DNA of 64,000 nucleotides, from positions 872 through 64,871 of IMG/VR virus record IMGVR_UViG_3300032288_002134; one strand, given 5' to 3'. The DNA is from a virus (taxonomy: Duplodnaviria; Caudoviricetes). The translations under genes were made by a program, and so were the position numbers. The first letter of the stretch is position 1; every line of letters starts with the position of its first letter. A model generated the notes under the pieces. It was not told where the DNA came from, ran no database searches, and worked only from the letters and a program-made list of their open reading frames with translations. Below, piece by piece: positions 470 through 58,422 of the stretch.

Positions 470-709
470 TTACTTTTCTGTTCCGTACTGCTCAATGTAG
501 TATGCAACGTCATTCCAATTTACTCCGAACTCAGCACTATGTTCTTGAATCATATCTATCAAGCACTGCTTTGCCTGTTCTTCGTTTACTTTATGTGTCG
601 GATGTCTATAGTTTACAAAATCATCTGTATCCCATTTGATAGACTCTTTTTTGTACTGCTCAAATTCTACGAGCAAATCTTCGTACATCTTTTTATAATT
701 TTTTCTCAT
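470..709 (-). CDS. hypothetical early protein
   Basis: ORF in the tightly packed minus operon; ACACCATG start. Confidence 0.75.
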   Translation of the reverse strand: MRKNYKKMYEDLLVEFEQYKKESIKWDTDDFVNYRHPTHKVNEEQAKQCLIDMIQEHSAEFGVNWNDVAYYIEQYGTEK

Positions 710-1498: not shown

Positions 1499-1531
1499 GT
1501 GTGTGTGATTTTTTGTGTGTGTTGAAAATGT

Positions 1532-1563
1532 TTGCAGTTGTTCGGATGCTGCGCCCCGATTGA
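1532..1563 (-). ncRNA. repeated intergenic structured RNA motif, copy 2 (TCAATCGGGGCGCAGCATCCGAACAACTGCAA)
   Basis: Covaries with 440-468; begins immediately after a TAG stop. Confidence 0.55.
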
Positions 1564-2112
1564 CTATAGAACTCTTTTGCGCAATGTATCTTTGAACTCG
1601 TCTGTGGCGCATAGTTCTTCAATAGTGCTGTACTCTACATCTTTTGTTTCTAATAAACTTATTCTTTTTTCTGTTGTGTAGTAGATGCCAGAGAATTTAT
1701 ATCTATCCTTTGCGCTGTACTCATCATAAAAACTTTCTCTTCTTATCTTTACTTCAATTGTCACGCAATCATTTTTATGTTCAGATACATAGAATGTACC
1801 ATTATTTGTAAATTGTATCCTACAAATTTTTATTTCTCTGCTGTAAGGGTGTATATTAATCATTGTTCTATCTTCGGGTAAGTCTTCTCTCAGTAAGTCA
1901 GCAATTCTATGTAGCTCATTCTTTTGTAGGTCTGTCCAGATTTGGTATTGGATTTTTTCCTCCTCATCAAGTTGTTTAATTCGTTCTTTTTTGTCTTGTA
2001 GTGGCTTAACGTCTACTAAATTAAACTTTGTTTTCGGCTGTGTTGAAGCGTTTAGTTTTTCGAATTGTGCCGATAGCAATTCGATTGTTTTCTGTTGTGT
2101 GTTGGTTAACAT
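1564..2112 (-). CDS. hypothetical protein
   Basis: 182-aa ORF in operon. Confidence 0.75.
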   Translation of the reverse strand: MLTNTQQKTIELLSAQFEKLNASTQPKTKFNLVDVKPLQDKKERIKQLDEEEKIQYQIWTDLQKNELHRIADLLREDLPEDRTMINIHPYSREIKICRIQFTNNGTFYVSEHKNDCVTIEVKIRRESFYDEYSAKDRYKFSGIYYTTEKRISLLETKDVEYSTIEELCATDEFKDTLRKRVL

Positions 2113-2140
2113 TTTTTAAAATTTAAATTGTTTATAATTT

Positions 2141-2203
2141 GGTTTGTCTCATCAGTGCATCGGAAACCATCTCAATGCATAGGGAGTAAAACTCCCTTTC
2201 GAC
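2141..2203 (-). ncRNA. hammerhead ribozyme, type II with pseudoknot
   Basis: GTC-GAAA-GGGAG(TTTTA)CTCCC-TA^-TGCATTG(AGATGGTTTC)CGATGCA-CTGATGA-GAC-AAACC: full core, three stems, loop I GGTTT pairs with the 3' AAACC. Confidence 0.92.
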
Positions 2204-2394
2204 TATTCCAAATCTTCGTTATACTCAAACGAGCCTGTCTCTATGTATTCAAAAATCTCTTCGAGATACACGAATTCGTAAGTCTTTGAGTCAGCGCAAC
2301 AGATTGTAAAAGTCTGACGGTCGTGTATGTTTTCTTTTTTGTCCGGTATTATTGTACCGGCAGCAATCATTAACCAAAAAAATAGTTGTGTCAT
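2203..2394 (-). CDS. hypothetical protein with hydrophobic N-terminus
   Basis: ORF; ACACCATG start. Confidence 0.65.
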   Translation of the reverse strand: MTQLFFWLMIAAGTIIPDKKENIHDRQTFTICCADSKTYEFVYLEEIFEYIETGSFEYNEDLE

Positions 2395-2406
2395 GGTGTG
2401 TTGTGT

Positions 2407-2628
2407 TTAAAATTTGAATGTGAATTTAATATCTGATTTGTTACTATCTATCGAGTTTAAATAGTTTGATATATTTGTAAATTCATTATGATTTTTTACC
2501 CTCCAACTTTTTAAAAATGGGTAATTTTCATGTATTTCAATATCCAATCCTATGCTTTCAATATATTTTGTAGCTTGATTGAAATTCATTTTTTGGGTTT
2601 CTTTTTTTATTTTTTCTGCTGTTATCAT
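2407..2628 (-). CDS. hypothetical early protein
   Basis: ORF; ACACACCACACCATG start. Confidence 0.7.
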   Translation of the reverse strand: MITAEKIKKETQKMNFNQATKYIESIGLDIEIHENYPFLKSWRVKNHNEFTNISNYLNSIDSNKSDIKFTFKF

Positions 2629-2651
2629 GGTGTGGTGTGTGTTTTAAATTG

Positions 2652-2876
2652 TTAGCAATATTTAAAGTCTATTTTTGCATAGCACTTTGTGAGTGCTTCA
2701 AAATTCTTAATTTTATTTTCAAGTTCTATTACTTCAGATTCATCAAGCTCATCTATATCCTCCCAATATCCGCTTATATCATAGCCTATCGCATCGTAAA
2801 AATGGGTAGTAAAATCGTATAAATTTTCTCTTGTTTGTTCGTACCTTTTTAATAGGCTGATAATTTTATTTCTCAT
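2652..2876 (-). CDS. hypothetical early protein
   Basis: ORF; same leader as 2628. Confidence 0.7.
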   Translation of the reverse strand: MRNKIISLLKRYEQTRENLYDFTTHFYDAIGYDISGYWEDIDELDESEVIELENKIKNFEALTKCYAKIDFKYC

Positions 2877-2891
2877 GGTGTGGTGTGTGTT

Positions 2892-3113
2892 TTAAAGTGA
2901 ATAATATTTTATAAATGCTTTAGCCGATAGTGTGTAAAACTCAGCGTACAAATCTGAGTTTTTTAAATTATCTTTAACCTGCTTGATATACATTTTTTTA
3001 GTCTCATTATCGCCCATCTCATAAAGTAGAATACTTTGTTCAAAGATTTTTTTTGCCTTTATAATTGTTACATCACAATTACAATTCTTTTCAATCCATT
3101 TTAAAGGTTTCAT
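2892..3113 (-). CDS. hypothetical early protein
   Basis: ORF; ACACCATG start. Confidence 0.7.
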   Translation of the reverse strand: MKPLKWIEKNCNCDVTIIKAKKIFEQSILLYEMGDNETKKMYIKQVKDNLKNSDLYAEFYTLSAKAFIKYYSL

Positions 3114-3132
3114 GGTGTTATGTTTTAAATGT

Positions 3133-3225
3133 TTATAAAATGATTGCTAATAAATAGCAGTAAGTTAATATTATTGCAGTAATCATAAGACCGCAAAAGA
3201 AATTGTTTAATTCTGTTCTGTCCAT
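3133..3225 (-). CDS. small membrane peptide (30 aa, MDRTELNNFFCGLMITAIILTYCYLLAIIL)
   Basis: Read by eye; ACACCATG start; fills an operon gap. Confidence 0.55.
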   Translation of the reverse strand: MDRTELNNFFCGLMITAIILTYCYLLAIIL

Positions 3226-3245
3226 GGTGTTAAAAATGTTTTAAA

Positions 3246-3434
3246 TTATAAATTGCTTTGATATTCTAAAATTCCATTGATTGCAATCTGCAAAATGTCG
3301 TCATATTCTGACTCGTGAACATCGTTCCAGTCACCGTTACCGTTGTCTAAACTTTTACAGATTGAAACCAAAAGTTCCAAACTACATTTTTTTAGTTCGT
3401 CAATTTTAACGGTTCTAATGTTTATAATTTTCAT
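3246..3434 (-). CDS. hypothetical early protein
   Basis: ORF in operon. Confidence 0.65.
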   Translation of the reverse strand: MKIINIRTVKIDELKKCSLELLVSICKSLDNGNGDWNDVHESEYDDILQIAINGILEYQSNL

Positions 3435-3497
3435 GTTAAGATGTTTTAATGATTAAAAAATATTTGCAGTTTTGGTAAGGTCTGCAAACTTTTATTT

Positions 3498-4229
3498 TTA
3501 ATAGTCAGTTATAACAAAACCTGATTTGTCTTTTCGTGCGCTACCTTTAGCCTTTAAGCCTAAAATGACTCCTTTTGGGCAATCAAGCATCAAATCGTCG
3601 CGTGAATCCCCGTCTAATACTGTAAAACCTTTGTATGTTTTCGGTAGTTCCTTTGCGAAAACCATTGCGACGATGCCACCATTTTTTAGTATATCAATAC
3701 ACTGCTCTTCGTTATCCTCAGAACGTGAAAACGTCACAACATATCTGTGCAAAGTTTCTGTTATACGTTCACCTTGCTTTTGCCAAATTTTTGTGTAATC
3801 ATAAAAGACTACATTTGGCGCAATGTCATACATTGAGCAAAGTTGCTCAACTAACTTAATGTCAGACGTTCCATTGAGTCTTACGGCCAATTCGCCTTTT
3901 GTTTTTTTAGCTTTTTTGTTTATTTCTGTGGCAATTTGTTCTAAAAACTTGAACCTATCTTTTAAGTAGAGTTCAGTTCTGTTAATTCTTGCACTTTGAA
4001 CGTTTAAGTATACGCCACGTCCTGCGGTATAAAGGCAAGCTTTTAAACAGCCTTCCGACGCCATAGGGCATAAATTAATACCTTTGCTGTTTTGCTTTGC
4101 GGGAGATAAGTACAAAATTAACGTTTCACGTTCATTTTTAGCCGTTTTTGTGTTAGTTACACCGTCAGATAATAATTTTTTAACTGATTTGATTTCAGTT
4201 TTTGTCAATTCTAAAGTATTGCAATTCAT
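3498..4229 (-). CDS. phage Gp88-like protein with three-Cys motif (radical-SAM-like)
   Basis: CPMASEGCLKAC, VRLNGTSD, FYDYTK, GLKAKG motifs. Confidence 0.7.
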   Translation of the reverse strand: MNCNTLELTKTEIKSVKKLLSDGVTNTKTAKNERETLILYLSPAKQNSKGINLCPMASEGCLKACLYTAGRGVYLNVQSARINRTELYLKDRFKFLEQIATEINKKAKKTKGELAVRLNGTSDIKLVEQLCSMYDIAPNVVFYDYTKIWQKQGERITETLHRYVVTFSRSEDNEEQCIDILKNGGIVAMVFAKELPKTYKGFTVLDGDSRDDLMLDCPKGVILGLKAKGSARKDKSGFVITDY

Positions 4230-6104: not shown

Positions 6105-7739
6105 ATGTTTGACAACACAGGTTACACTCCGAAGGATTTGTTGTTCGGAGACGATGCTAGAGCCAAGCTCATTAGTGGCATAAACAAGATTGCCAATGCG
6201 GTGAAGAGTACATTAGGTCCTGGAGGGAATACGGTACTGATAGAGTCACCTCATCACACACATGGTATTACAGTTACGAAGGATGGTGTCACAGTTGCGA
6301 GAGCTGTGGACTTGTTTGATCCGGTGGAGAACCTTGCGGTAAGGATGATGAAGGAGGCAGCGGACAGGACTGCTACCAATGCAGGTGATGGTACTACGAC
6401 AGCGATAGTGTTGACAGAGGCACTGGTGCTTGAGGGTATAAAGAGGCTTACGCCAGAGGTGAACAGGACAGAGGTGCTGAGGCACATGGGTGACATAACA
6501 GGGAGTATAGTAGAGCAGCTTCGTAAGAGGGCTAAGAAAGTGACGAACTCGTTATTGTTGGATGTGGCTACCATATCGGCTAATAATGACAAGGAGATAG
6601 GTCGGATAATATCCGAGGTGTATAAAGAGATAGGGAGAACCGGTATCGTTACCGTTGAGAAATCACAGACCTATGAGACCTATGCAGAGACAACGAAAGG
6701 GATAAAGTTCGACAGAGGGTACACATCCAATCTGTTTATCAACGACCATAAGAAAGACGAGTGCGTATTTGAGGATGTGATGGTGTTGGTTGCCGACATT
6801 GAGATAAGTAACATCCTGCAAGTAGAGAACATACTAAAACCAATCATAACCGAGGGCAAAAAATTGCTCATCATTTCCCCCTGTAGCACTAACGTGGTGA
6901 ATACACTGGCTGCCAATGTAGTGAAAGGCAATGTAAAGGTTTGTGCTGTTGCCCCACCAAACTTCGGGTACAAACAACATGAGCTGATGCAAGACATTGC
7001 TGTCAGTGTAGGTGCTACATACTTCAGCGAGAAGACCGGTGATGATCTGTCAATTATGAACTATGGAGACCTGGGTCATGCTGCCAAGGTCATCGTGTCC
7101 AAAGACAGCACTGTGATCCTTAAATCGGAGTTCAAGTCAAAGCCTGAGATGATTGACGAGAGAGTGAAGCAGTTATGGTCTGCTCACGCTGCTGCAAAGC
7201 GCAAGGCAGACAAAGACTTCATCCTTGAGCGTATCGCTTCGCTTACCGGTGGTATTGGTGTCATCTTCGTGGGTGGTAATACTGACCTGGAGCAGAAAGA
7301 GCTTTATGACAGAGTGGATGATGCGGTATGTGCTGTGAGGTCTGCATTAGAGGAGGGTATCCTTCCAGGAGCAGGCAAGGCATTGTACGAGGTGAACGTG
7401 TTTGGTATCATGGGGGATAATCCAAGCCATGAGAGAAAGGTGGCTGCGCATATCATCCATCATGCACTGTCAAGACCACTATGCCAGATCCTTGAGAACG
7501 TAGGGTTGAGAATAGAGCAGATATATGTTGACAACTGCGATGAGGGCTATGGGTATAATGTCAAGACAGAAGACTTTGGAGACCTTATCAAAATGGGGGT
7601 CGTTGACCCATTGAAGGTGACAAGGAGCGCACTCCAAAATGCTGTTAGCGTAGCGACAACAATTCTTAGCACTAATGCCATCGTCACAATGGCAAGAAGC
7701 TTTGAGATTGCTAACGTATCTAAAAACCCAATGCAATGA
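6105..7739 (+). CDS. groEL: chaperonin GroEL
   Basis: STLGPGG, VTKDGVTVA, AGDGTTTA, GVVDPLKVTRSALQNA; lacks the GGM tail. Confidence 0.97.
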   Translation: MFDNTGYTPKDLLFGDDARAKLISGINKIANAVKSTLGPGGNTVLIESPHHTHGITVTKDGVTVARAVDLFDPVENLAVRMMKEAADRTATNAGDGTTTAIVLTEALVLEGIKRLTPEVNRTEVLRHMGDITGSIVEQLRKRAKKVTNSLLLDVATISANNDKEIGRIISEVYKEIGRTGIVTVEKSQTYETYAETTKGIKFDRGYTSNLFINDHKKDECVFEDVMVLVADIEISNILQVENILKPIITEGKKLLIISPCSTNVVNTLAANVVKGNVKVCAVAPPNFGYKQHELMQDIAVSVGATYFSEKTGDDLSIMNYGDLGHAAKVIVSKDSTVILKSEFKSKPEMIDERVKQLWSAHAAAKRKADKDFILERIASLTGGIGVIFVGGNTDLEQKELYDRVDDAVCAVRSALEEGILPGAGKALYEVNVFGIMGDNPSHERKVAAHIIHHALSRPLCQILENVGLRIEQIYVDNCDEGYGYNVKTEDFGDLIKMGVVDPLKVTRSALQNAVSVATTILSTNAIVTMARSFEIANVSKNPMQ

Positions 7740-8098: not shown

Positions 8099-8306
8099 AA
8101 TGGTAAACCATCCGGACCATTATGGAGGAAAAGATAACCAATACGAAGCAATAAAAGTAATAGAGGCTTGGAATCTTGACTTCCACCTTGGGAATGCCGT
8201 AAAGTATATCTCAAGAGCAGGTAAAAAAGAGTCTATGATACAAGACCTAGAGAAAGCAAAATGGTATCTTGAAAGAAAAATACAAATCTTAAAAACAAAA
8301 TTCTAA
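8082..8306 (+). CDS. DUF3310 (T7 gp1.7/SaV-like nucleotide kinase family)
   Basis: VNHPDHY, GNAVKYISRAGKK, DLEKAKWYL. Confidence 0.85.
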   Translation: MERNIEMVNHPDHYGGKDNQYEAIKVIEAWNLDFHLGNAVKYISRAGKKESMIQDLEKAKWYLERKIQILKTKF

Positions 8307-9151
8307 TGAAACATTCTCTCCACTCTTCGTTCTATCCACATATTGATGGGCGTAAGTTTACAGCAGTAGTAAAAAAGCTAAGACAGTTCTTTGATGAGAG
8401 AGGCTTTCTTGAGGTACATACTCAGAACAGACTTAGCATCCTATCTGCCTGTGAAGACCCATTTAACATCAGAACATTCTACTATAATCGAAACACCTAT
8501 CCGCTTCCGCAGACTGGGCAGATGTGGCTTGAGCATGAGCTACTGAATAATCCAAAAGAGAAAGGGTTCTATTGTCTTTCGACAAGTTACAGAGATGAAG
8601 CCAATCCGATAGAGGGAAGACACTGCCTCATCTTCCCAATGTTTGAGTTTGAGTTCCCAGGTAGTATGTCAAACCTCCACTTGATGGAGACAGAATTGTT
8701 AGAGTTTCTCGGTTTCAAAGACCATCAGATTGCCAACTATGAAGATCTGTGCAAAGAATACAATGTCGAAATCATAGACTCAGAGGTAGAAGGCAAGATA
8801 GGAAATGAGAAGTCAAACGTATTCTCAATCTTGAACTTTCCGGAAAGAACCAATCCATTCTGGAATATGGCAAGAGCCAATAACGGCAAAGCTAAAAAAA
8901 TTGATGTCATCCTGTACGGACAAGAGACCATTGGAAGCGCAGAGCGTTCTTGCGATAAGGAAGAGATGAGAAAGATATTCTTTGAGATTGAAGGAGGCAG
9001 ATATGCCGATAAGCTATTCAGTCTTTTTGGATATGACAGAGTAATGACTGAGCTAAACGAGTTTCTATCAAATGACTTCTTCCAAAGAGTAGGTGGTGGT
9101 ATTGGTATCACCAGACTTATCAGGGCAATGGAGTTAAATAATATCTTATAG
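8306..9151 (+). CDS. class II aaRS catalytic-domain paralog (AsnRS/AspRS-like, no anticodon domain)
   Basis: Motif 1 FFDERGFLEVHT, motif 2 YRDE...RH..IFPMFEFE, motif 3 GGGIGITRL; 281 aa. Confidence 0.85.
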   Translation: MKHSLHSSFYPHIDGRKFTAVVKKLRQFFDERGFLEVHTQNRLSILSACEDPFNIRTFYYNRNTYPLPQTGQMWLEHELLNNPKEKGFYCLSTSYRDEANPIEGRHCLIFPMFEFEFPGSMSNLHLMETELLEFLGFKDHQIANYEDLCKEYNVEIIDSEVEGKIGNEKSNVFSILNFPERTNPFWNMARANNGKAKKIDVILYGQETIGSAERSCDKEEMRKIFFEIEGGRYADKLFSLFGYDRVMTELNEFLSNDFFQRVGGGIGITRLIRAMELNNIL

Positions 9152-39799: not shown

Positions 39800-42700
39800 A
39801 TGAACGAAGAGGCAGTAAAATACGCTTTTGATTTATTTGTAAAAGATGGATATGGTGATAATATAGATGATTTTAGAAATCTAATGAAATCAGATCCAAA
39901 AGCAATTGATTATGTTTTTAATTTATTTGTAAAAAATGGATATGGTGATAATATAAATGATTTTAAAAATCTATTAGGAATTACTCAATCCCAAGCAATC
40001 ACTCCAAAAAAAAAAGGAGAGAGTATGGTATCCGACTCGGAAGTTTCTTCTTCGGGTTTACCATCGGGTGAACAGCCTAAGCTTGAAGAGATACCTTTCT
40101 CTTTGGATTATCAGAAGCAACAGCAGCAAGTACCATTTAAGCCTTCAACTCCGGTAACTCAACCTGAGCAGAAAAGAGACGTGTCTAAACTAAAAGAATA
40201 TGATACTACTCAACAGTATGACAGATATGGTGTGCCTGTTACTCAGTTTCCTACAGCACAAAGAGAAGAGTATTTAGCTAAACCGGTACAGCAGATTGAG
40301 ACAAAAGTCAAGTTTGAAGAAAAGAAAGAGGAGCTTGAGAAACAAGTACCTGGTTTCTTAAAGCCATCTGTAGAGACAATAGACAAAAACTTTTTAGCTA
40401 GAACTTCACTTCCAATAATAAGCGATTTAAACAGACAATACAAAGAAGCAGGTTTTGAGTTTTCAGGCAATCCTGCTGATAAAACATATTTAATAGCAAA
40501 AGCTCCAAATGGACAAACATTAAATATCAATTTAGGATATTTTAATAATGCAGGATATATAAATGATATATCAGATGAAGCAGAAAGGTTAAAAGTTTTT
40601 ATCAAAGAAAATTCTCCATCTATACCGACTGAAAAAGTAAATAAATTACAAAAGGAATACGAGGAAGGTAAGCAAGAATTTCTTACACAAAAACAAATAG
40701 ATGAATCGAATAAATCTCTTTCAAAAGATTTAGAAGATTATGGCAAAAGAAATTTATCTTATACTCAGAGTTTAGATAATTTAAAAAAATCAATTGATGA
40801 ATTTAATGCAATACCTGAAAGTCAAAGAAATACTCCTGAATATATAAATAGAAGAAATGAAATTCAAAAACAAACTGATATATTGATTTCAGAGGAGAAC
40901 AGTCTTAAGCAATTTGAGAAAGATATAGAAGCTAAACAAAGTAATTTAAAAAAGTCACTAGGAGAATATACAAAGTATAAAGAAAATCAAGGTACTTTTG
41001 CAGGTGGTATTTGGAATTCAATATCAAATACAATAAGTTCAATGGTCGCAGGAACTGTTGCTGCCGGATCTGATATTATAACAGGGGCAACTCCTGCTGA
41101 ATGGTTATTAGGTAAAGAAGAATATGAAAAGCAATTCACTCAGATTGCCAAAGAAAAATATGGAATAGAAGGAGATAAATTTGATGACATAATAAGAAAT
41201 GATAAGTTAACAGAAGGAAGAGCAGCTCTTATAAATAGTGAATTAAAAGACAGAGTAAAGAAAGAACGAAAATATGGCAAAGAAGGGGAAGAAGGTGTAA
41301 TAAAATATCTAAGAGGTAGTGTGTATGATTTATTGGCAGATAAAAGCACTACTGAACAATGGGCTGAATTAAAAAATAAATCATTTATACCTCAAGCTAT
41401 ATTGGGTGTTAGTGGTAGCCTTCCAAATATGTTGATGCCTGGGGGTTGGATAGGTCGTGCTTTAGGTACTTTTATATCTACTTCTGATGGTGTATTTAAA
41501 GAAATGGAAAATAGTCCTAATTTCCAAAATATATCTGAAAATGAAAAATGGGCTGTTGCTGCTCCTTTAGGAATGGCTTCTGCTACATTAGAAGAGATAG
41601 GTTTATCTTCATTGTTAAAAGGAACTAATATAACAAAATATATAACAAAGATGGCATTAGACAAAGCAGGTGCTAATGTTACTCCAAATATATTTAAAGG
41701 ATTAGTAAAAAAAGAAGTTCAGGATTTAATATCTAATGGTACTCTAAAAGTAGTAAATGGTTTTTTAGCTGAAGCAGAAACAGGTGCTTTGCAAACAATA
41801 GCGGAATTTTCAATAAAGGATATATACAATACGGTAAAAGATAAAAAAGACGAAAACGGAAACCCTGTAAAGATGTTTGATACGCCTGATACTGTAACTG
41901 AATGGGTTACTGATGTATTGTATGGAGGTGCTGTTGAAGGTGTTGGAGGTCTTATGATTTCATCTGGTATGGCTGCTGCAAGTGCTTTTAATAATGACAA
42001 TTTTGTCAATATGGATAGCGATACTTTCAAGGCATTTGTTAATTCTTCAAATGATTTGAATGTAGAAAAAGCATTTATATCTGATTTGAAAAATAAGATT
42101 GCATCTGGAGATATGACAATGGCTGAAGGCAAGGATTTATTAAATAAATATAGACAAGCCAAAGGACTATTAAATTCATTGCCTAGCGAATTGGATGAAA
42201 AAGATAAAAGAGTAGCTTTAGATTTATTGAGTAAAAGAAAAAAGTTAGAGGATAAGATCCAAGGAAAAGATACAGCATTAGCTAAACCTATTCAGAATAG
42301 AATTGATCAAATTAACGAACAACTAAATCAAATAACAGAGAATGCCATTCAAAAGCAAACAGCAGGTGAAGTACCTGTACAGCCAGAAGCCGGAGTTGGC
42401 GAAGAAGTGGTCCAAGGAAAACCCGAAACAGGACTTGAAGTCACTTCCGAACAAGTTGTCACCGAAGAAAAGCCAAAAGAAGAGGTAGTAACACCTGAAG
42501 GTGTAGTAGAAAAAAAAGATATACAAGTTTACAGAGGTACATCTACTGGAAATAAATCTGATAAAGACGGAGTATCTTACCATACAACAGATAGAGGGTA
42601 TGCAGCGTTTTATGAAACAGGAAAAGAAAAGCCTGATAATAAAGCTTTAGAAGAACTTGAAGCCTTAACTCCTCCGAATAAACCAAATAAAGTAGAATTA

Positions 42701-45700
42701 TCAACTGAAGAGGAAGTAGATGCTTATGTTGATCAATGGATTTCTGACTATGAAGACGCAAAAAGATTCAAACCTGAGACTAAAATACCTTCAAGAGAAG
42801 AAGCTATATCAGAAATGAAACAGAGCGGTTATCCAATATTTCTTACTCAAGAAGAGGTTGATAACGAAAACAAAAAACAAGAGAAAAAATATAATTCTGA
42901 TTTAGAGAAATACAATCAAAAGAAATTAGAACTTGAAGATAAGGCTAAAAATTATTTATCACCCAAAAAAATATCTGGCAATTTCTTTAATCTTGGGATT
43001 GATTTTTCAAAAATGAATCCTCAACAGATATTTGAAAAATTGAAATCATTAGGAATATCAAGTGTGTTTAAAGGCGGTAATTTTTTAGACAATTATCATT
43101 CTGACTTAACAGAATATGCAAGAAAAAATAACATAGATTTCTATGATGGCATAACCGGTGGTGTTCAAGGTAGTATGAATACTGCTCCTCAAGAGATAAT
43201 TGAAGTTTCTAAATTAGAACAAGCACCTGCTGAGGTAAAGACTCCTGAGCAGGAAGCTGACCTATTGGAGGAATTACTGACCGGAAAGAAGAAAGAGCCG
43301 GCAATGACACCTCAAGTGGAAACAATGACACCTGGGGAAAAAGTAATGACACCTGAAGCGAAAGCGGAAGAAGAGATGATAGTTCAGCCTGAGTTTACCG
43401 AGCAGGATCAGGCAAGGAAGAGAGAGCTTGAAGATGCTCTGAAGAAGGCTGACAAGCGTAAGAAGAATGTTATGGTAGGTGAGGTGTCAATGCCAAAGGC
43501 TGAGGTTAAAGCAGAGCTTGATGCATTGAGACAGAAGGAGCAGGCTGTTGTTGAGGCAGAAGTTCAATCTATAGAAAAAATGTTATCAGCTCCTGAGCAA
43601 AAAGACAAAGGAAAGATAAGACAAGCTGTAACAAATGCAGTTAAGGCTATTGCTAAAATATTACCGAATACAAAGATAGTATTACACGAAACTAGTCAAG
43701 ATTATGTAAACGCTACCGGTGATACTGACAATGCATCAGGATTATATGTACCAAGCGCAGATGGAGGTACTATTCATATAAACTTATCTAATGCCAATAC
43801 AAGAACAGTAGGGCATGAGGTATTTCATGCTACATTACTCAGAGGTATTAAGACAGATGCTGAAGCTCAGAGATTAGCGAAAGCAATGATAGGAGCTGTA
43901 GCTAAGTCATTAAAACAATCAGGCGCAAATCAAGAGTTATTAAATGAACTTGAAAATTTCTTGTCTAACTATGATGAGAATATTCAAAATGAGGAATACT
44001 TAGCTGAAGTATTTGGATATCTCGCTGATGGATACCCACAGTTGACAGCACCTGAAAAAAGTATTATCAATAGATTCATTGAGAGAATAATGAAACTGTT
44101 TGGCTTAAAGCCAATGACAGACAAAGAGGTTATTGATTTTATGAATACCCTATCAAGGAAGGTAGCTACCGGTGAAGAGATAACAGAGAAAGAAGCAGGT
44201 ATTACAAAAAGAACTAAAGGAATATCTAATATAACAAAAAGATTTCAAGCAAATTTTATAGATCCTATTTCAAGACTTTCATTTGTTTATGATAAAAATA
44301 GTGAAAAATTTGAAAATTTAAAAAAGCAAGGATTTATAACTACAGATAAATCATTATCTGATTTTAATGGGAAATTTATATTCCTACATCAACCTGATGC
44401 AGCTTTTTCAGGTATGATTTATAAAAATAATGAACTTCTTGTTGAGGGAAAAGGAGGTGTTTTTTATCCTATTAAATTCCATGAAGATGGATATTTTTGG
44501 GCAAGTACATCAAAAACTGCCAAAAAAATGGCAGACGATTTAAATAAAGTATTAAAACAAAACAATGGAATTATTTATATGGCATTAACCTCTGCGCCAT
44601 ATGATAAACTAATGTCAAGCACAACAATGTCAAATGCAATACTTGATTTTTTCTCATCAAAAGCATTTGATAAAAATTTTAATATAACTCAAAAACAATT
44701 AAAAAATGCACTAATATTAGCTGCAAATAATGTAAAAGAAAAACAAAAAAAAGATAAAAAAACGGGAGAAATTACTACTAAAACTATAGGGTTAAATTTA
44801 AATATAAAACAAAATATTTCTTTAGAAAACATTCAAACTTTAATTAAAGAAAAATTAAATCCTGATAATAGTTCATTTGCAGATAGAAAGAATTTTGCTG
44901 AAGAGTTAATAAGAATAATGGCTGAGAATATTAAAGAAGATTCTAAGGCTATTGAACAATTTGGTAAATTATTCTCTGAAGGAATTCAAAATAAATATTT
45001 TAAAGGAATAACAAAAACAGGTAAATTAAGCATTAGTGCTGCAAATATGACTCAAGCACTATCTGAAATGTTTACTGAACCAATTTTAAAAGAAGGAATT
45101 GATAGAGAAAAAGGAGGTCAAGTATATGCTATATTAGAATTGAATGGTAAAGTTAAACCTGTTGAATCTAATAAACACGAATCATATCCTATGGCTATAC
45201 AGTCAGAAGGAAGTGAAAAAGTAAAAGTTCATGTTCTGAATGATAGACAGAATTGGTATGATGTATTTGAAGATTTTGAAACAAATGACATAGTAACTGA
45301 AGATAGAAAAAATAAAATATATCCTACTTCAGGAGTTTCGACAAGAGGATTAAAATTAAATACATCAAAAGTTGATGGCATATCACCTCGTCAGCAGAAA
45401 TCTACTGAAATAACAACAGATAAAGATGCTAAACCTGGCTTTGAAAAAGCTCTTAATTCGCTTAATGAAACTGAACAACAAAGAGAAGAATGGAGAAAAA
45501 CGCATAAAGTAAATCAAAAACAAAAACGTAATCCCATAGTAGAACAAGCTGTAAAAGATTATTATAATGAAAAAATAACTCAAGAAGAATATCTTGATAT
45601 AGTTTCTAAAAACCAACCTATTAAATCTTTTAAAAATGTTCCAAAATTACCAACTTTAAGAGAAATAACAAATTCTTTAGACAGCTCTAAAGTTGCCACA

Positions 45701-48700
45701 GGTATAATTGGATTAACTAAAAATTTAGAAGATGGAGAAAAAGTAGCTTGCAGATTAGATATACCTGCATATGAAGATTTTGATACTTGGGTTGTTTCTA
45801 TACATGATGGAAATAAAGAAGGAAAATCAATTGCATACGGTCAGACAGCTGTACTAAAAAATGTTGATTTTAAAACATTTCCTGGACCTGCAATGAAAAT
45901 TGCAATGGGTACTCAAAGTAAATCTACAATTGCTAGAATGTTTGGTAATTGGGTTAATGAAGATCCAGAATCAGTTCATGCAAGAGCAAAAGAACTAATG
46001 AATGACCCTGCTTGGACACAAGTAGGAATGAATCCATTTAGATATAGTTGGTTTTATGATAAGGCAGATGGAACGCCTATTTCTACAGCTGATGAAGTTA
46101 TTCAAGTGGGTGCATTAGTATTGGCTAAAAATGCAAAAAAAGTATCTACTAAAGATATAATGTTTGAAACTAAATCATCAACAGGATTATCAATAAGGTT
46201 TCAAAAAAATAATTCACAAGAAATTGTAAAACAAGCAAGAGCTAATGGTATATCAGATGCAGGCATAAGAGCCTATTTTAAAAAGAATGGTTTGTCTGAT
46301 ATTGAAATTGATGAATTACTTGAAGGAGAAAAAGGAGCAGGCAAAAAAATTGAGCTTTCTGAAGAGACTCTTCCTGGATACACCAAACTGATGAACAGAA
46401 TAAATGGTCTCATCTCAAGGGGTAGAAAAAGCGGAAAGTCTGATGATGTAATAATGCAAGGTGTTATTGCCAATGTAGAAGCAAACTCACCGGAATATGC
46501 CAATGCTACCGATCAACAGCGTGAGCAGATAATTCGTGACATCAGAAAGATGTTCGGAAAGAAAGAAAAGGCAGCACCATCAGCAGAGAAAATAACCGGT
46601 AAACCTAAATCTAAAAAGGTTACTGTAAATGAAATGGCTGCACTCAAAGACCAAATAAGATTAGAGGCAAGAGCTGCTAGAGAAGCTAAGGGTGATCTTA
46701 ATGCTAAACGTAAAATGTTAGCTGAGGCTATCAATAAACTCGTTGCTAAAGGTACTATTACCTTAAGACAAGCTAACGCTATTATCAAAAGGGTGAACCT
46801 GGTCAACCTTGACAATCCTATAATGGTTGAGAGATTACTTAATTATGCAGAAAAAGTATTTAAAGATGCTGAATATGCGGATAAATTAAGCGAAGCAAAT
46901 AAATTATTTTCATCTATAAAGCAATCGTCAAAGTCAAAAGAAAAGAATGCTGATTTAGTAACTCTTGCAAAAGAATTTTTAGGAATAGACCCATCTATGG
47001 TTGAGAATATAGATGAGTATATTCAAAAGGCTTCTGAGTTAGATAGTAGTTTAAAAGGTTCTAAGGCTACGGCAAAAGGTATGTCTGCTTCTGAAATGAT
47101 AAACATACAAGAAGCTACTGAATACATATCTGAAACAATAAAAGCTCAGGAGCAAAAGATAAAAGAACAGACTGCTGCTGAGATAGAGTCTACAATGGGT
47201 GTAGATGCATCTGATTTGACTTATGAACAAATGCTTGAGTTACTTGAAGATGAAAGTAAACCTATCAATAAAGATAAAGAAAAGGTTATCAGGAGTTTAG
47301 TTAATAAAATGTTTGATACATATTCAAGTATTATCGAATATATGTTTAAGACTGGTAAAAATCCTTTTGTTGTTTATGATGAGAATCTAAAATACGAACC
47401 GGTAACATTTAAAGAATCGGATAAGCAGATTGTTCGTGAATTTATGAAAATGGATCTCGGTAAGCTCAGTGTCAGAGAGGCATTGAAAGCTATGGATGCA
47501 TTAAATAACTTTATTGTCAATCGTTCAGTTGCCAATATGGGTTCTGTAGTAGCCCAATATAAAGCAAAACAAAACGCTGAAATAGTTGACAAAAAAAATA
47601 TAAGAAGCAAACCTGTAAAGTATTTATGGAGTAATACTTTGGGTAAAATGCTATTTGACAATTTTGCTTCATTCCCATTATTGATAGAAAGATTCTTTAA
47701 AAGTAAAGACATTGGTTTGTATGTATCCAGAATGATGGGTTTAAATGATTTGTTTAATGGTGCTTCTTCTGCAAAAACGATAACCGGTGTTGTAGTTAAA
47801 AACTATCTTGACCTATTCTCAAAAACAAAACCAAATGGTAAAGTATTTAATGATGCTTTTAACTTGGTAGAAAGGGGAATGGTTGCATTCATGTCAAGAC
47901 ACAAGATAGGAACGGATGCTCAGATAAAAGAAGAATTTAATGACAGAAAAAATGAAATTGAAGAGTCTATAAAAGCATTGTCTACAGGTACTAAAAGAGA
48001 ACAGGAAAAAGCTAAGGTTTATAAAGAAGTATATGACAAGTTGTTTAAAGATGCAAAGAACGCAGATGACATCAGAAATAATGCGGATAATAAAAATATA
48101 GAAGCTGTAGATTGGTGGGTTAACGAATGGAAAAATCATTATGATGAGTTAGCTGATGTATCATTAAAAATATACAATACAAAACTGGATAAGGATTCTT
48201 ATTACACCACCGATAGATATTCTAAATTGGAAGGGGTAGAAAAAGAAATAGATCTTGAGGATAATGTTTCAGCATTTAGCTTTAACAATGGAAATATATC
48301 TGAAAAGAAAGCAGGATCTTTAATGGAGACAAGAGATAAGAAATCGGGTCTTCCAAAAAATAAAGATGGAGAAGTCACAAGGTTTGTTGATTTATCTTTT
48401 GATGCCGTAAATGCAAATTCATTATACGATGCACTGACAGACATTAAAACTGCCTATGCTATTAAACAAGTAAAAGCATTTATGAAAACAGATGCTTTCA
48501 AAAGAATTGTACCTGATAAAGAAGAAAGAGATATATTAGGAAATAGAATAAACTTAGCTGTTAGAAATTTAAGAAATCAAAAATTATTTGATTCAAGTAC
48601 AATGAGTAAAGCTGTAAAGGGATTAAATAAATTTTCAAGCATTGGGTCTACAATGGCATTAGCCGGTATAGTGCAACCTTTTAAACAAACTATTCCTATA

Positions 48701-50125
48701 GCATTTAATACTGCTATAAATACAGGTAGATTTTTTGATTTATTACGGATACTAACAAATTCAGATGTAAAAGATTTTATTAACAATTCAGGATATTCAA
48801 TAGCAAATAGAGGTATAGAATCAAGTGTTCACCTTGAAAGTATAAATAAAAAATTAGATGAGGCTGCAAAGACAAAAGCTGAATATTTAGGTAATAAAAT
48901 ATTAGAATTGAATGAGATGTATATGAAACTTTTCTTGGCGAATCCTGATGCTTGGATAGCTAGAGCATCTTGGATGGCTTATTATGAAAAAGGGTTAAGA
49001 AAACAAGGTCTATACAAAACAACTGAAACAATAAAAACAGCTTCAGGAACTCGTGAGGTTACTAAAAAAGGAATTGATTATAGTAAGCATAAAATAAACA
49101 AAGAAGCTGCTGATTATGCTCAGATGATGATTGACAGACAGCAAAACATAACCGATACTAGATTGGCAGGTTCTATATATTCAGGTGAAAATGCCTTCCA
49201 AACTATGATGACAAAAATATTTTTGCCACTCGCCAGTTTTAGAATAAATCAACATTTGAGAATGTCTAATGACTTAGCAACTACATTTAGTAAAACTACA
49301 AGTTGGCAAGAAAAAAGAGAAGCATTAACATCTCTTTCAGGTGCAATAGTAGAAATGATTGTATTTAGAGCCATAGGAATAGGTGCTAGTTATTTATTTT
49401 TTGAATTAGCATCAATGATAAGAGGAGAAGAAGAAGATGAGGAGAAAAAGAAAAGAAAAGAAAAAATGGCTTCAAATACATTAAAAGGTATATTAACTGG
49501 AGCTGTAACAGATATATTATCTCCTATTCCTGTTACAGATTATCCGGTAAAGTATTCTGTTAATGCTGCAATGGATTTCACTCAGGATTTGATTGGAATG
49601 GGTGATGAAGATAAACTATCTTTATATGTTGAAAATATTCCTTCATTTTCAAGTGTATTAGGGACTGCCGGTATCTTTTTAGATAAAGTAGCAGATATAA
49701 AAGAAACAGCTCAAATGGCTGCTACAGGTAAGTTTGAACAAGATGTATTTGGTAAAAAAATTGAGAAAGAGATAAGCGAAAAGGACAGACAAATATTAGC
49801 ATGGTCTTTAATCCCATCAATACTCACAAATACTATATTACCTGGTGCGCCAGAGACAAATAATATTATGAGTAAAGTTAAAAAAGCTATTAAGAAAGAA
49901 GGTAAAACTGCCGATCAAAAAGAAAAATATGATGCATTTGGTGGGCATTCTTCTGAAAAAGAATTTAGAACGGAAAATCCTGAAAAGTACATGGAATCTT
50001 TGCAGCCAGGTGGTAGTTTATATGAATACAAAATGAGAGAAAATCAGAAAAAAATGGAAGAACTTCCAGAGAAATTACAAAAAAAGATGGAGGAGACTAT
50101 GAAAAAAGCAAATAAAATGCAGTAA
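39800..50125 (+). CDS. giant polyvalent virion protein (3441 aa) with zincin HExxH and possible ADP-ribosyltransferase-like segment
   Basis: TVGHEVFH...EEYLAE; VYRGT...SYHTTDRGYAAFY. Confidence 0.75.
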   Translation: MNEEAVKYAFDLFVKDGYGDNIDDFRNLMKSDPKAIDYVFNLFVKNGYGDNINDFKNLLGITQSQAITPKKKGESMVSDSEVSSSGLPSGEQPKLEEIPFSLDYQKQQQQVPFKPSTPVTQPEQKRDVSKLKEYDTTQQYDRYGVPVTQFPTAQREEYLAKPVQQIETKVKFEEKKEELEKQVPGFLKPSVETIDKNFLARTSLPIISDLNRQYKEAGFEFSGNPADKTYLIAKAPNGQTLNINLGYFNNAGYINDISDEAERLKVFIKENSPSIPTEKVNKLQKEYEEGKQEFLTQKQIDESNKSLSKDLEDYGKRNLSYTQSLDNLKKSIDEFNAIPESQRNTPEYINRRNEIQKQTDILISEENSLKQFEKDIEAKQSNLKKSLGEYTKYKENQGTFAGGIWNSISNTISSMVAGTVAAGSDIITGATPAEWLLGKEEYEKQFTQIAKEKYGIEGDKFDDIIRNDKLTEGRAALINSELKDRVKKERKYGKEGEEGVIKYLRGSVYDLLADKSTTEQWAELKNKSFIPQAILGVSGSLPNMLMPGGWIGRALGTFISTSDGVFKEMENSPNFQNISENEKWAVAAPLGMASATLEEIGLSSLLKGTNITKYITKMALDKAGANVTPNIFKGLVKKEVQDLISNGTLKVVNGFLAEAETGALQTIAEFSIKDIYNTVKDKKDENGNPVKMFDTPDTVTEWVTDVLYGGAVEGVGGLMISSGMAAASAFNNDNFVNMDSDTFKAFVNSSNDLNVEKAFISDLKNKIASGDMTMAEGKDLLNKYRQAKGLLNSLPSELDEKDKRVALDLLSKRKKLEDKIQGKDTALAKPIQNRIDQINEQLNQITENAIQKQTAGEVPVQPEAGVGEEVVQGKPETGLEVTSEQVVTEEKPKEEVVTPEGVVEKKDIQVYRGTSTGNKSDKDGVSYHTTDRGYAAFYETGKEKPDNKALEELEALTPPNKPNKVELSTEEEVDAYVDQWISDYEDAKRFKPETKIPSREEAISEMKQSGYPIFLTQEEVDNENKKQEKKYNSDLEKYNQKKLELEDKAKNYLSPKKISGNFFNLGIDFSKMNPQQIFEKLKSLGISSVFKGGNFLDNYHSDLTEYARKNNIDFYDGITGGVQGSMNTAPQEIIEVSKLEQAPAEVKTPEQEADLLEELLTGKKKEPAMTPQVETMTPGEKVMTPEAKAEEEMIVQPEFTEQDQARKRELEDALKKADKRKKNVMVGEVSMPKAEVKAELDALRQKEQAVVEAEVQSIEKMLSAPEQKDKGKIRQAVTNAVKAIAKILPNTKIVLHETSQDYVNATGDTDNASGLYVPSADGGTIHINLSNANTRTVGHEVFHATLLRGIKTDAEAQRLAKAMIGAVAKSLKQSGANQELLNELENFLSNYDENIQNEEYLAEVFGYLADGYPQLTAPEKSIINRFIERIMKLFGLKPMTDKEVIDFMNTLSRKVATGEEITEKEAGITKRTKGISNITKRFQANFIDPISRLSFVYDKNSEKFENLKKQGFITTDKSLSDFNGKFIFLHQPDAAFSGMIYKNNELLVEGKGGVFYPIKFHEDGYFWASTSKTAKKMADDLNKVLKQNNGIIYMALTSAPYDKLMSSTTMSNAILDFFSSKAFDKNFNITQKQLKNALILAANNVKEKQKKDKKTGEITTKTIGLNLNIKQNISLENIQTLIKEKLNPDNSSFADRKNFAEELIRIMAENIKEDSKAIEQFGKLFSEGIQNKYFKGITKTGKLSISAANMTQALSEMFTEPILKEGIDREKGGQVYAILELNGKVKPVESNKHESYPMAIQSEGSEKVKVHVLNDRQNWYDVFEDFETNDIVTEDRKNKIYPTSGVSTRGLKLNTSKVDGISPRQQKSTEITTDKDAKPGFEKALNSLNETEQQREEWRKTHKVNQKQKRNPIVEQAVKDYYNEKITQEEYLDIVSKNQPIKSFKNVPKLPTLREITNSLDSSKVATGIIGLTKNLEDGEKVACRLDIPAYEDFDTWVVSIHDGNKEGKSIAYGQTAVLKNVDFKTFPGPAMKIAMGTQSKSTIARMFGNWVNEDPESVHARAKELMNDPAWTQVGMNPFRYSWFYDKADGTPISTADEVIQVGALVLAKNAKKVSTKDIMFETKSSTGLSIRFQKNNSQEIVKQARANGISDAGIRAYFKKNGLSDIEIDELLEGEKGAGKKIELSEETLPGYTKLMNRINGLISRGRKSGKSDDVIMQGVIANVEANSPEYANATDQQREQIIRDIRKMFGKKEKAAPSAEKITGKPKSKKVTVNEMAALKDQIRLEARAAREAKGDLNAKRKMLAEAINKLVAKGTITLRQANAIIKRVNLVNLDNPIMVERLLNYAEKVFKDAEYADKLSEANKLFSSIKQSSKSKEKNADLVTLAKEFLGIDPSMVENIDEYIQKASELDSSLKGSKATAKGMSASEMINIQEATEYISETIKAQEQKIKEQTAAEIESTMGVDASDLTYEQMLELLEDESKPINKDKEKVIRSLVNKMFDTYSSIIEYMFKTGKNPFVVYDENLKYEPVTFKESDKQIVREFMKMDLGKLSVREALKAMDALNNFIVNRSVANMGSVVAQYKAKQNAEIVDKKNIRSKPVKYLWSNTLGKMLFDNFASFPLLIERFFKSKDIGLYVSRMMGLNDLFNGASSAKTITGVVVKNYLDLFSKTKPNGKVFNDAFNLVERGMVAFMSRHKIGTDAQIKEEFNDRKNEIEESIKALSTGTKREQEKAKVYKEVYDKLFKDAKNADDIRNNADNKNIEAVDWWVNEWKNHYDELADVSLKIYNTKLDKDSYYTTDRYSKLEGVEKEIDLEDNVSAFSFNNGNISEKKAGSLMETRDKKSGLPKNKDGEVTRFVDLSFDAVNANSLYDALTDIKTAYAIKQVKAFMKTDAFKRIVPDKEERDILGNRINLAVRNLRNQKLFDSSTMSKAVKGLNKFSSIGSTMALAGIVQPFKQTIPIAFNTAINTGRFFDLLRILTNSDVKDFINNSGYSIANRGIESSVHLESINKKLDEAAKTKAEYLGNKILELNEMYMKLFLANPDAWIARASWMAYYEKGLRKQGLYKTTETIKTASGTREVTKKGIDYSKHKINKEAADYAQMMIDRQQNITDTRLAGSIYSGENAFQTMMTKIFLPLASFRINQHLRMSNDLATTFSKTTSWQEKREALTSLSGAIVEMIVFRAIGIGASYLFFELASMIRGEEEDEEKKKRKEKMASNTLKGILTGAVTDILSPIPVTDYPVKYSVNAAMDFTQDLIGMGDEDKLSLYVENIPSFSSVLGTAGIFLDKVADIKETAQMAATGKFEQDVFGKKIEKEISEKDRQILAWSLIPSILTNTILPGAPETNNIMSKVKKAIKKEGKTADQKEKYDAFGGHSSEKEFRTENPEKYMESLQPGGSLYEYKMRENQKKMEELPEKLQKKMEETMKKANKMQ
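42342..42488 (+). CDS. overprinted 48-aa basic protein (MPFKSKQQVKYLYSQKPELAKKW...) in the +1 frame of the giant gene
   Basis: ATG after AACTAAATCAAATAACAGAGA leader; TAG at 42486-42488. Confidence 0.6.
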   Translation: MPFKSKQQVKYLYSQKPELAKKWSKENPKQDLKSLPNKLSPKKSQKKR

Positions 50126-58338: not shown

Positions 58339-58422
58339 TAGTCAGGACAGGATTCGAACCTGCATCCCCATACTATTGGGTAAACGGATTTGCACCGTAT
58401 GTTAACTTTACACTACCTGACT
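58339..58422 (-). tRNA. atypical tRNA or tRNA-like RNA, possibly Leu(CAA)
   Basis: AGTCAGG/CCTGACT acceptor, GCAGG-TTCGAAT-CCTGT T-arm, ACGG-TGCAAAT-CCGT arm, long variable arm; no CCA, non-canonical D-loop. Confidence 0.5.

Follow-up and report, generated by a model that had tools for sequence, protein, structure and literature searches.

A 90-nt spacer separates two small genes, ORF63 and ORF182, in a 64,871-bp virus genome with direct terminal repeats. The RNA motif encoded in this spacer raises two questions: whether it is a genuine self-cleaving ribozyme and, if it is, what a cut at this place would do to the genes on either side. The analysis covered a stretch of 64,000 nt of the genome, hereafter the window, in which the motif lies on the minus strand inside a leftward array of small co-directional genes, with no terminator-like site near it on that strand. 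The reading favoured here, which the sequence makes probable, is that the spacer encodes a genuine type II hammerhead ribozyme with a pseudoknot, which would cut itself between ORF63 and ORF182 and uncouple the two cistrons.

ORF63 belongs to no Pfam or PHROG family, has no function in the protein Atlas and no relative in the viral contigs; in a comparison with one related contig of the metagenome run X2, third codon positions account for 10 of the 15 differences listed in 2211-2361, which fits a real coding gene. ORF182 likewise has neither a Pfam or PHROG family nor a usable protein Atlas match, and its use as a query in the viral contigs gave no confirmed relatives; homologues at 58-78% identity are present in four metagenome contigs. 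A blastn search of 1500-3500 against the phage collection returned no match. Other products of the genome include a P22-like portal protein, a BT4734-like_N/DUF5906 protein and an SNF2-type helicase, besides the chaperonin and the GP88-family protein listed in Table 1. The chaperonin gene adjoins the divergent region where the hammerhead-bearing leftward array begins. A single open reading frame of 3441 aa spans 39800-50125 on the plus strand. An Rfam tRNA match at 58339-58422 on the minus strand (42.7 bits) has 27 nt where the model has 15; ARAGORN reported no tRNA anywhere in the window, and the match may represent an unusual or interrupted phage tRNA.

The motif at 2203-2140 on the minus strand reads, base for base, as a canonical and complete type II hammerhead (Table 1). 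The earlier note had already named its stems, its core and the complementarity between loop I and the 3' tail; re-read on the minus strand, all of these parts and their coordinates are correct. The core has C3 U4 G5 A6 N7 G8 A9 on one side and G12 A13 A14 on the other, the A15.1:U16.1 pair is present, H17 is A and not G, and stem II is closed by the G10.1:C11.1 pair formed by G2148 and C2201. Three helices radiate from this core, with loops closing stems I and III and stem II left open; the descriptor counts 7 bp in stem I, 6 bp plus the A:U pair in stem III and 3 bp in stem II. The match to the hammerhead consensus, which had also been put forward, is borne out: every conserved position is canonical and the helices follow one another in type II order. 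The proposed pseudoknot between GGTTT and AAACC is indeed complementary and can be extended by one pair to UGGUUU/AAACCA, giving 5-6 bp by complementarity; a majority of type II copies have such a pseudoknot of 4 bp or more.

The predicted cut follows from the hammerhead numbering and, as claimed, the next ATG (2112) stands 67 nt away, making 2179-2113 the leader of the 3' product. The chemistry of the class, as given in the part of PMC8782182 drawn on here, leads one to expect that A2180 would bear a 2',3'-cyclic phosphate and U2179 a 5'-OH. Folded in isolation, the 3' product forms stem I right from its 5' terminus, its first nucleotide being paired, and leaves the start region open; a Shine-Dalgarno-like purine run is not visible in 2113-2139 on the minus strand.

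Table 1. Parts of the hammerhead in the spacer, the genes named in the text, and the type I hammerheads of related loci (the latter in coordinates of their own loci).
Feature	Position	Strand	Remarks
ORF63, upstream gene, 63 aa	2203..2394	-	ORF list
TAG stop codon of ORF63	2205-2203	-	its G (2203) opens the 5' strand of stem II
Stem II, 5' strand GUC (11.3-11.1)	2201..2203	-	partner GAC, 2148-2146
Core G12 A13 A14 with A15.1 (GAAA)	2197..2200	-	columns invariant in the 55-sequence phage type II alignment
Stem III hairpin	2181..2197	-	GGGAG 2196-2192 / CUCCC 2186-2182, closed by A2197:U2181 (A15.1:U16.1)
Stem III loop	within 2181..2197	-	UUUUA, or an extra U:A pair with loop UUU
Predicted cleavage site	2180/2179	-	A17 is 2180, from hammerhead numbering
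Stem I hairpin	2156..2179	-	UGCAUUG 2179-2173 / CGAUGCA 2162-2156
Loop I, 10 nt	2172-2163	-	AGAUGGUUUC
Core C3 U4 G5 A6 U7 G8 A9 (CUGAUGA)	2149..2155	-	
Stem II, 3' strand GAC (10.1-10.3)	2146..2148	-	partner GUC, 2203-2201
3' tail AAACCA	2140..2145	-	pseudoknot partner of loop I UGGUUU, 2169-2164
Leader before the next start codon	2113..2139	-	A/U-rich, unstructured
ORF182, downstream gene, 182 aa	1564..2112	-	ORF list
GP88-family protein	3498-4229		Pfam/PHROG search
Cpn60/GroEL-like chaperonin	6105-7739	+	Pfam PF00118, E 2.1e-53
Type I hammerhead, locus L108	1085-1140	+	
Type I hammerhead, locus L110	about 562-617	+	
Type I hammerhead, locus L109	about 1664 onward	+	
Type I motif, locus L012	8088-8152	+	~0.5 kb downstream of GP88/phrog_1617 homologue
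Type I motif, locus L008	4965-5029	+	~0.5 kb downstream of GP88/phrog_1617 homologue
Type I motif, locus L010	3669-3733	+	~0.5 kb downstream of GP88/phrog_1617 homologue

The minimum free energy fold of 2210-2136 (75 nt) is the expected three-way junction, at -21.3 kcal/mol and with a z-score of -3.19; one of 200 shuffles was as stable. A relaxed type II descriptor (core CUGANGA, GAAA, UH, with stem I of at least 4 bp, stem III of at least 3 bp and stem II of at least 3 bp) matches exactly one site when both strands of the 64-kb window are scanned, and any match at all was obtained in 1 of 100 dinucleotide shuffles of the window; the real stems are far longer than the descriptor minima.

A check with the Rfam type II models, as the earlier note had proposed, succeeded in part. 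In a search of 83 nt (2130-2212), Hammerhead_II (RF02276) aligns over its full length (1-66 of 66) with 31.3 bits and E 2.9e-05, but the score is below the gathering score of 37, which is a curation threshold and not a biochemical feature. Wider searches did not report the motif: a whole-window Rfam scan at gathering thresholds yielded the tRNA-like match only and no hammerhead, an E-value scan of 2050-2300 (251 nt) reported no hammerhead, and a search of the virus's own record with RF02276 gave 0 matches from 5 scored candidates. Because the 83-nt search finds the motif, these three misses are filter and threshold effects and not signs of absence. The rare 15.2:16.2 pair and the A/U-rich stems accompany the low score and probably explain part of the shortfall. 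Since Rfam scans with default filters or at gathering thresholds can miss well-formed A/U-rich hammerheads of phages, counts of such ribozymes in environmental phages are probably underestimates.

A pattern made from the invariant parts of the motif retrieved 88 stretches of viral contigs from IMG/VR. The descriptor identified 141 type II hammerheads, or 105 distinct sequences, in the window and 73 of these 88 loci; the remaining 15 retrieved loci held no type II hammerhead by the descriptor. A 3-bp stem II, as in the window, is the commonest length in the class (68/105). Single loci can carry whole arrays, with up to 11 type II hammerheads in L103, 9 in L069 and 8 in L051; in these three loci a hammerhead follows almost every small gene. 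Stem I and tail sequences recur among the copies of one array, a sign of probable spread inside a genome.

An alignment was built from 55 type II hammerheads that are at most 85% similar to one another, with the window excluded. Its helices covary: 86.7% of cells are paired as against 64.7% in shuffles, and none of 500 shuffles reaches 86.7%. The pairs homologous to the proposed pseudoknot behave in the same way, as all five change on both sides and 91.9% of their cells in the 55-member alignment are paired. A covariance model made from this alignment (R1), run on the whole window with filters off, scores the motif at 48.1 bits with E 2.2e-10 (2138-2203, minus strand), and the next-best match in the window has 8.5 bits. 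R1 is partly circular, as its training loci were found with a pattern derived from the motif, and the way it was built favours its score for CGAAA and CUGAUGAGACAAA; the stems, the pairing between loop I and the tail, and the spacing stand outside this circularity. The motif is the only type II copy in the window, as nothing else exceeds 8.5 bits with R1, and this predicted ribozyme belongs to the phage type II hammerhead family.

Within that family the copy in the window has two unusual letters. A C15.2:G16.2 pair and a GUC-type triplet are usual in the class, though not obligatory. Here the 15.2:16.2 pair is G:C instead; position 15.2 is C in 89 of the 105 sequences, U in 14 and G in 2. The cleavage triplet CUA occurs in the window copy alone (1/105), GUC being found in 83 of the 105. 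CUA ranks among the slower NUH triplets of minimal hammerheads, and the NUH rule allows any paired N16.2. With CUA and G15.2:C16.2, the ribozyme may be less active and cleave more slowly than the GUC forms.

The strain-level history of the spacer can be read from contigs of four DNA metagenome runs (X2-X5) aligned to 1500-3000. The 20 listed matches to the sequence are DNA contigs, mostly with freshwater or lake labels; the listing contained no RNA run with the sequence. In one X5 contig, an extra C follows A2197 and an extra G precedes U2181 (letters of the minus strand); this paired insertion adds a C:G pair to stem III and turns the CUA triplet into GUA. This contig also differs in the loop, at 2188 and 2189, and lacks 2191. 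Among the differences listed for another X5 contig is a one-sided deletion at 2193 in stem III. In a 6321-nt X2 contig, 631 other letters replace 2116-2201, with 5 differences over 591 positions in one flank and 21 over 199 in the other. Contigs of X2, X3 and X4 lack the gene at 2407-2628, their joints lying at 2390/2625 and 2400/2637. The picture at strain level is one of mosaicism among small genes.

More distant relatives place hammerheads elsewhere. In the four metagenome loci with an ORF182 homologue, none has a hammerhead before that gene (absent in 4/4), and the upstream gene ends 14-18 nt before the ATG. In the loci L108, L109 and L110, a type I hammerhead occurs instead, ~1.1 kb ahead of the ORF182 homologue. 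In a narrow search, the L108 motif obtained 25.7 bits with Rfam Hammerhead_1 (gathering score 34) and 26.7 bits with RAGATH-1-hammerhead (gathering score 56.3). The ORF upstream of the L108 motif appears to continue through stem I and the core as far as a stop in loop II, and stem II of the L109 motif is compensatory (GGUU/AACC).

A type I hammerhead-like motif also occurs in 3 of the 19 loci found via the GP88 protein, namely L008, L010 and L012. Stem II shows a compensatory change among them (GGCC/GGCC versus GGCU/AGCC), and stem III is a long terminator-like hairpin followed by a U run, which implies that the complete ribozyme would be present in read-through transcripts only. In L012, the upstream ORF ends with a TGA that falls within the CUGAUGA core; right after this motif (8150-8400, plus strand) come tandem repeats of ~30 nt, whose units begin aatgagc...caggt, then a C/A-rich stretch of short repeats. 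An Rfam search at E <= 1 over the three loci (25.7 kb) returned nothing, probably as a filter effect. Across these related loci, hammerheads appear as recurrent but movable features of the gene array.

The stop codon of ORF63 runs into the ribozyme, as the earlier note had pointed out; this fusion is real, and it is how members of the class are usually placed, not a peculiarity of this copy. Of the 105 distinct type II hammerheads, 76 are preceded by a frame of at least 50 codons whose stop comes 2-7 nt before C11.1, and the spacing is exactly 2 nt in 24 of the 105, as in the window, where the G of TAG is nucleotide 11.3; among random positions drawn from those loci the figure was 48 of 2100. 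When the set is reduced to 85% similarity (67 representatives from 37 loci), 44 of the 67 still fall within 2-7 nt, with 13 at 2 nt, while the nearest frame ends inside the motif in 10 and further upstream in about a dozen. On the other side, the distance from A9 to the next start codon has a class median of 26 nt (IQR 21-29) and is 36 nt in the window. The packing order of the class is stop codon, ribozyme, minimal start region, start codon, and the survey turns it into a quantitative rule: stop codon 0-5 nt before stem II, start codon ~26 nt after A9. A rule for stop-codon placement was not found in the papers searched; the main text of Perreault et al. (2011; PMC3088659) uses "stop codon" and "termination codon" 0 times, and the supplements of that paper (alignments, gene-context figures) may bear on the rule.

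If the spacer indeed encodes an active ribozyme, a plausible course of events can be drawn from its layout. RNA polymerase would transcribe through the ORF63-ORF182 spacer, the motif would fold once the tail (2145-2140) had emerged, and the RNA would cut itself co-transcriptionally between A2180 and U2179. The 5' product would comprise the whole of ORF63, its stop codon and a further 24 nt, ending in the stem III hairpin and UA with the cyclic phosphate. The 3' product would begin with a 5'-OH at the base of the 7-bp stem I hairpin, and what is left of the ribozyme would become its 67-nt leader, with an open, A/U-rich start. It is the type II topology that would place a hairpin at both new ends. 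In bacterial mRNA decay, a hairpin that closes the 3' end almost without overhang is an obstacle to 3' exonucleases, and a 5' hairpin with a 5'-OH hinders 5'-end-dependent RNases; with both ends so guarded, each cistron would have its own lifetime, the cut uncoupling the two and allowing a separate decay rate for each. Self-cleavage in vivo, with an effect on mRNA stability and expression, would be the most likely outcome.

Several other explanations compete with a functional ribozyme. The motif could merely resemble a hammerhead by chance, as two ordinary hairpins beside a CTGATGA heptamer; AT-richness of the window (35.7% GC) and the silence of the default Rfam scans would suit such a view, but any match turned up in a single shuffle although the stem lengths allowed there were looser than those observed, the pseudoknot tail sits at the family position, and R1 reaches its E-value over the whole window with filters off. 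The shuffles, the 83-nt Rfam search and R1 leave chance resemblance already close to refuted, and we regard it as exceedingly improbable. It is also conceivable, if rather unlikely, that the motif is a true hammerhead by descent that has become weak or dead, and that it now acts only as an intercistronic pair of hairpins or has no function. The rarity of CUA and of G15.2, the RF02276 score below gathering, the absence of the motif from all four of the more distant relatives and its replacement in one X2 contig all agree with decay of this kind; against it stand the intact pseudoknot and catalytic core positions, the paired insertion that keeps stem III in a related strain, which argues for selection on the helix, and the freedom that the NUH rule gives to N16.2.

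Two further readings take their cue from the surroundings of the motif. One, which we consider highly unlikely, is that hammerheads mark recombination or cassette junctions, i.e., that repeated copies serve as short homology for swaps of accessory genes, RNA cleavage being secondary. The X2 contig that departs exactly across 2116-2201, the long arrays of hammerheads between successive genes, and the hammerheads of other topology that relatives bear at other junctions are all compatible with such exchange, but the indels at 2390-2625 and 2400-2637 fall at gene borders without any hammerhead, this genome has one type II copy, and the covariation of the helices shows selection on RNA structure beyond DNA sequence. 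The other, somewhat less improbable but still unlikely, is that the ribozyme is gated by the ribosome. The size of the ribosome footprint is established, and a ribosome at the ORF63 stop codon would cover stem II, G12-A14 and the 5' half of stem III; it would therefore unfold or block the motif, and cleavage would depend on the upstream translation load. The 2-nt spacing here, the excess of close stops in the class over random positions, and the relatives whose upstream ORF enters a type I motif (reaching the core in L012 and loop II in L108 before its stop) speak for gating, but compaction of the genome would by itself predict flush placement just as well, the spacer on the downstream side is likewise close to the minimum for a start region, and no feature was found that tells gating from packing. 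The spacing rule does make the idea of gating testable. A broader and rather doubtful proposal holds that type II hammerheads in phage operons are translation-aware punctuation: a terminating ribosome would repeatedly melt stem II and half of stem III and so time or limit cleavage, this permutation would be favoured as the one that alone places hairpins on both new ends, and the cistrons would gain separate half-lives. If that were true, the window would be a simple, single-copy test case.

Returning to the functional type II ribozyme as the preferred reading, its novelty is modest: it is a typical further example of the known phage type II hammerhead, not a new kind of element, one more among thousands, and its presumed role was proposed in 2011. 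Part of its value is that a single copy with a natural CUA variant, together with a sister strain that has GUA, offers a clean natural pair for the effect of cleavage on the flanking genes.

The closest known systems are the type II hammerheads of phages and prophages. The statement in the earlier note that pseudoknotted type II forms occur in phages fits the part of Perreault et al. (2011; PMC3088659) drawn on here, which describes such forms in phages and prophages, reports the pseudoknot in the majority of type II copies and immediately downstream of stem II, and proposes that long phage transcripts are cut into gene-length mRNAs; the uncoupling of cistrons suggested for the window agrees with this processing role. 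With RF02276 and the type II forms of Perreault et al., the window copy shares the permutation, the core, the 3-bp stem II and the 5-6 bp pseudoknot 3' of stem II, as well as the setting in a phage intergenic spacer between co-directional genes; it differs from the RF02276 class in having G15.2:C16.2 and CUA instead of C:G and GUC, and in its score of 31.3 bits against a gathering score of 37. The clustered hammerheads on either side of prophage genes, described around Figure 3 of that paper, likewise lie between phage genes on one transcript, whereas the single copy here would make one cut and would excise no gene on both sides.

The type I hammerheads of the related loci (L008, L010 and L012; L108, L109 and L110) occupy the same early-gene neighbourhood on the gene strand, with the upstream stop codon touching or inside the motif; they differ from the window copy in their open stem I and in the junction that they occupy and, in L008, L010 and L012, in a terminator-like stem III. 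Of two other papers, PMC10651486 (Racr) mentions the hammerhead only as an engineering tool, and PMC13725137 concerns ribozymes of eukaryotic RNA viruses. Cleavage in the cell is documented for relatives by type: three type II hammerheads of Desulfovibrio vulgaris cleave in vivo, as detected by cyPhyRNA-seq according to the part of PMC8782182 used here. These belong to the same ribozyme type as the copy in the window and occupy bacterial chromosomal loci.
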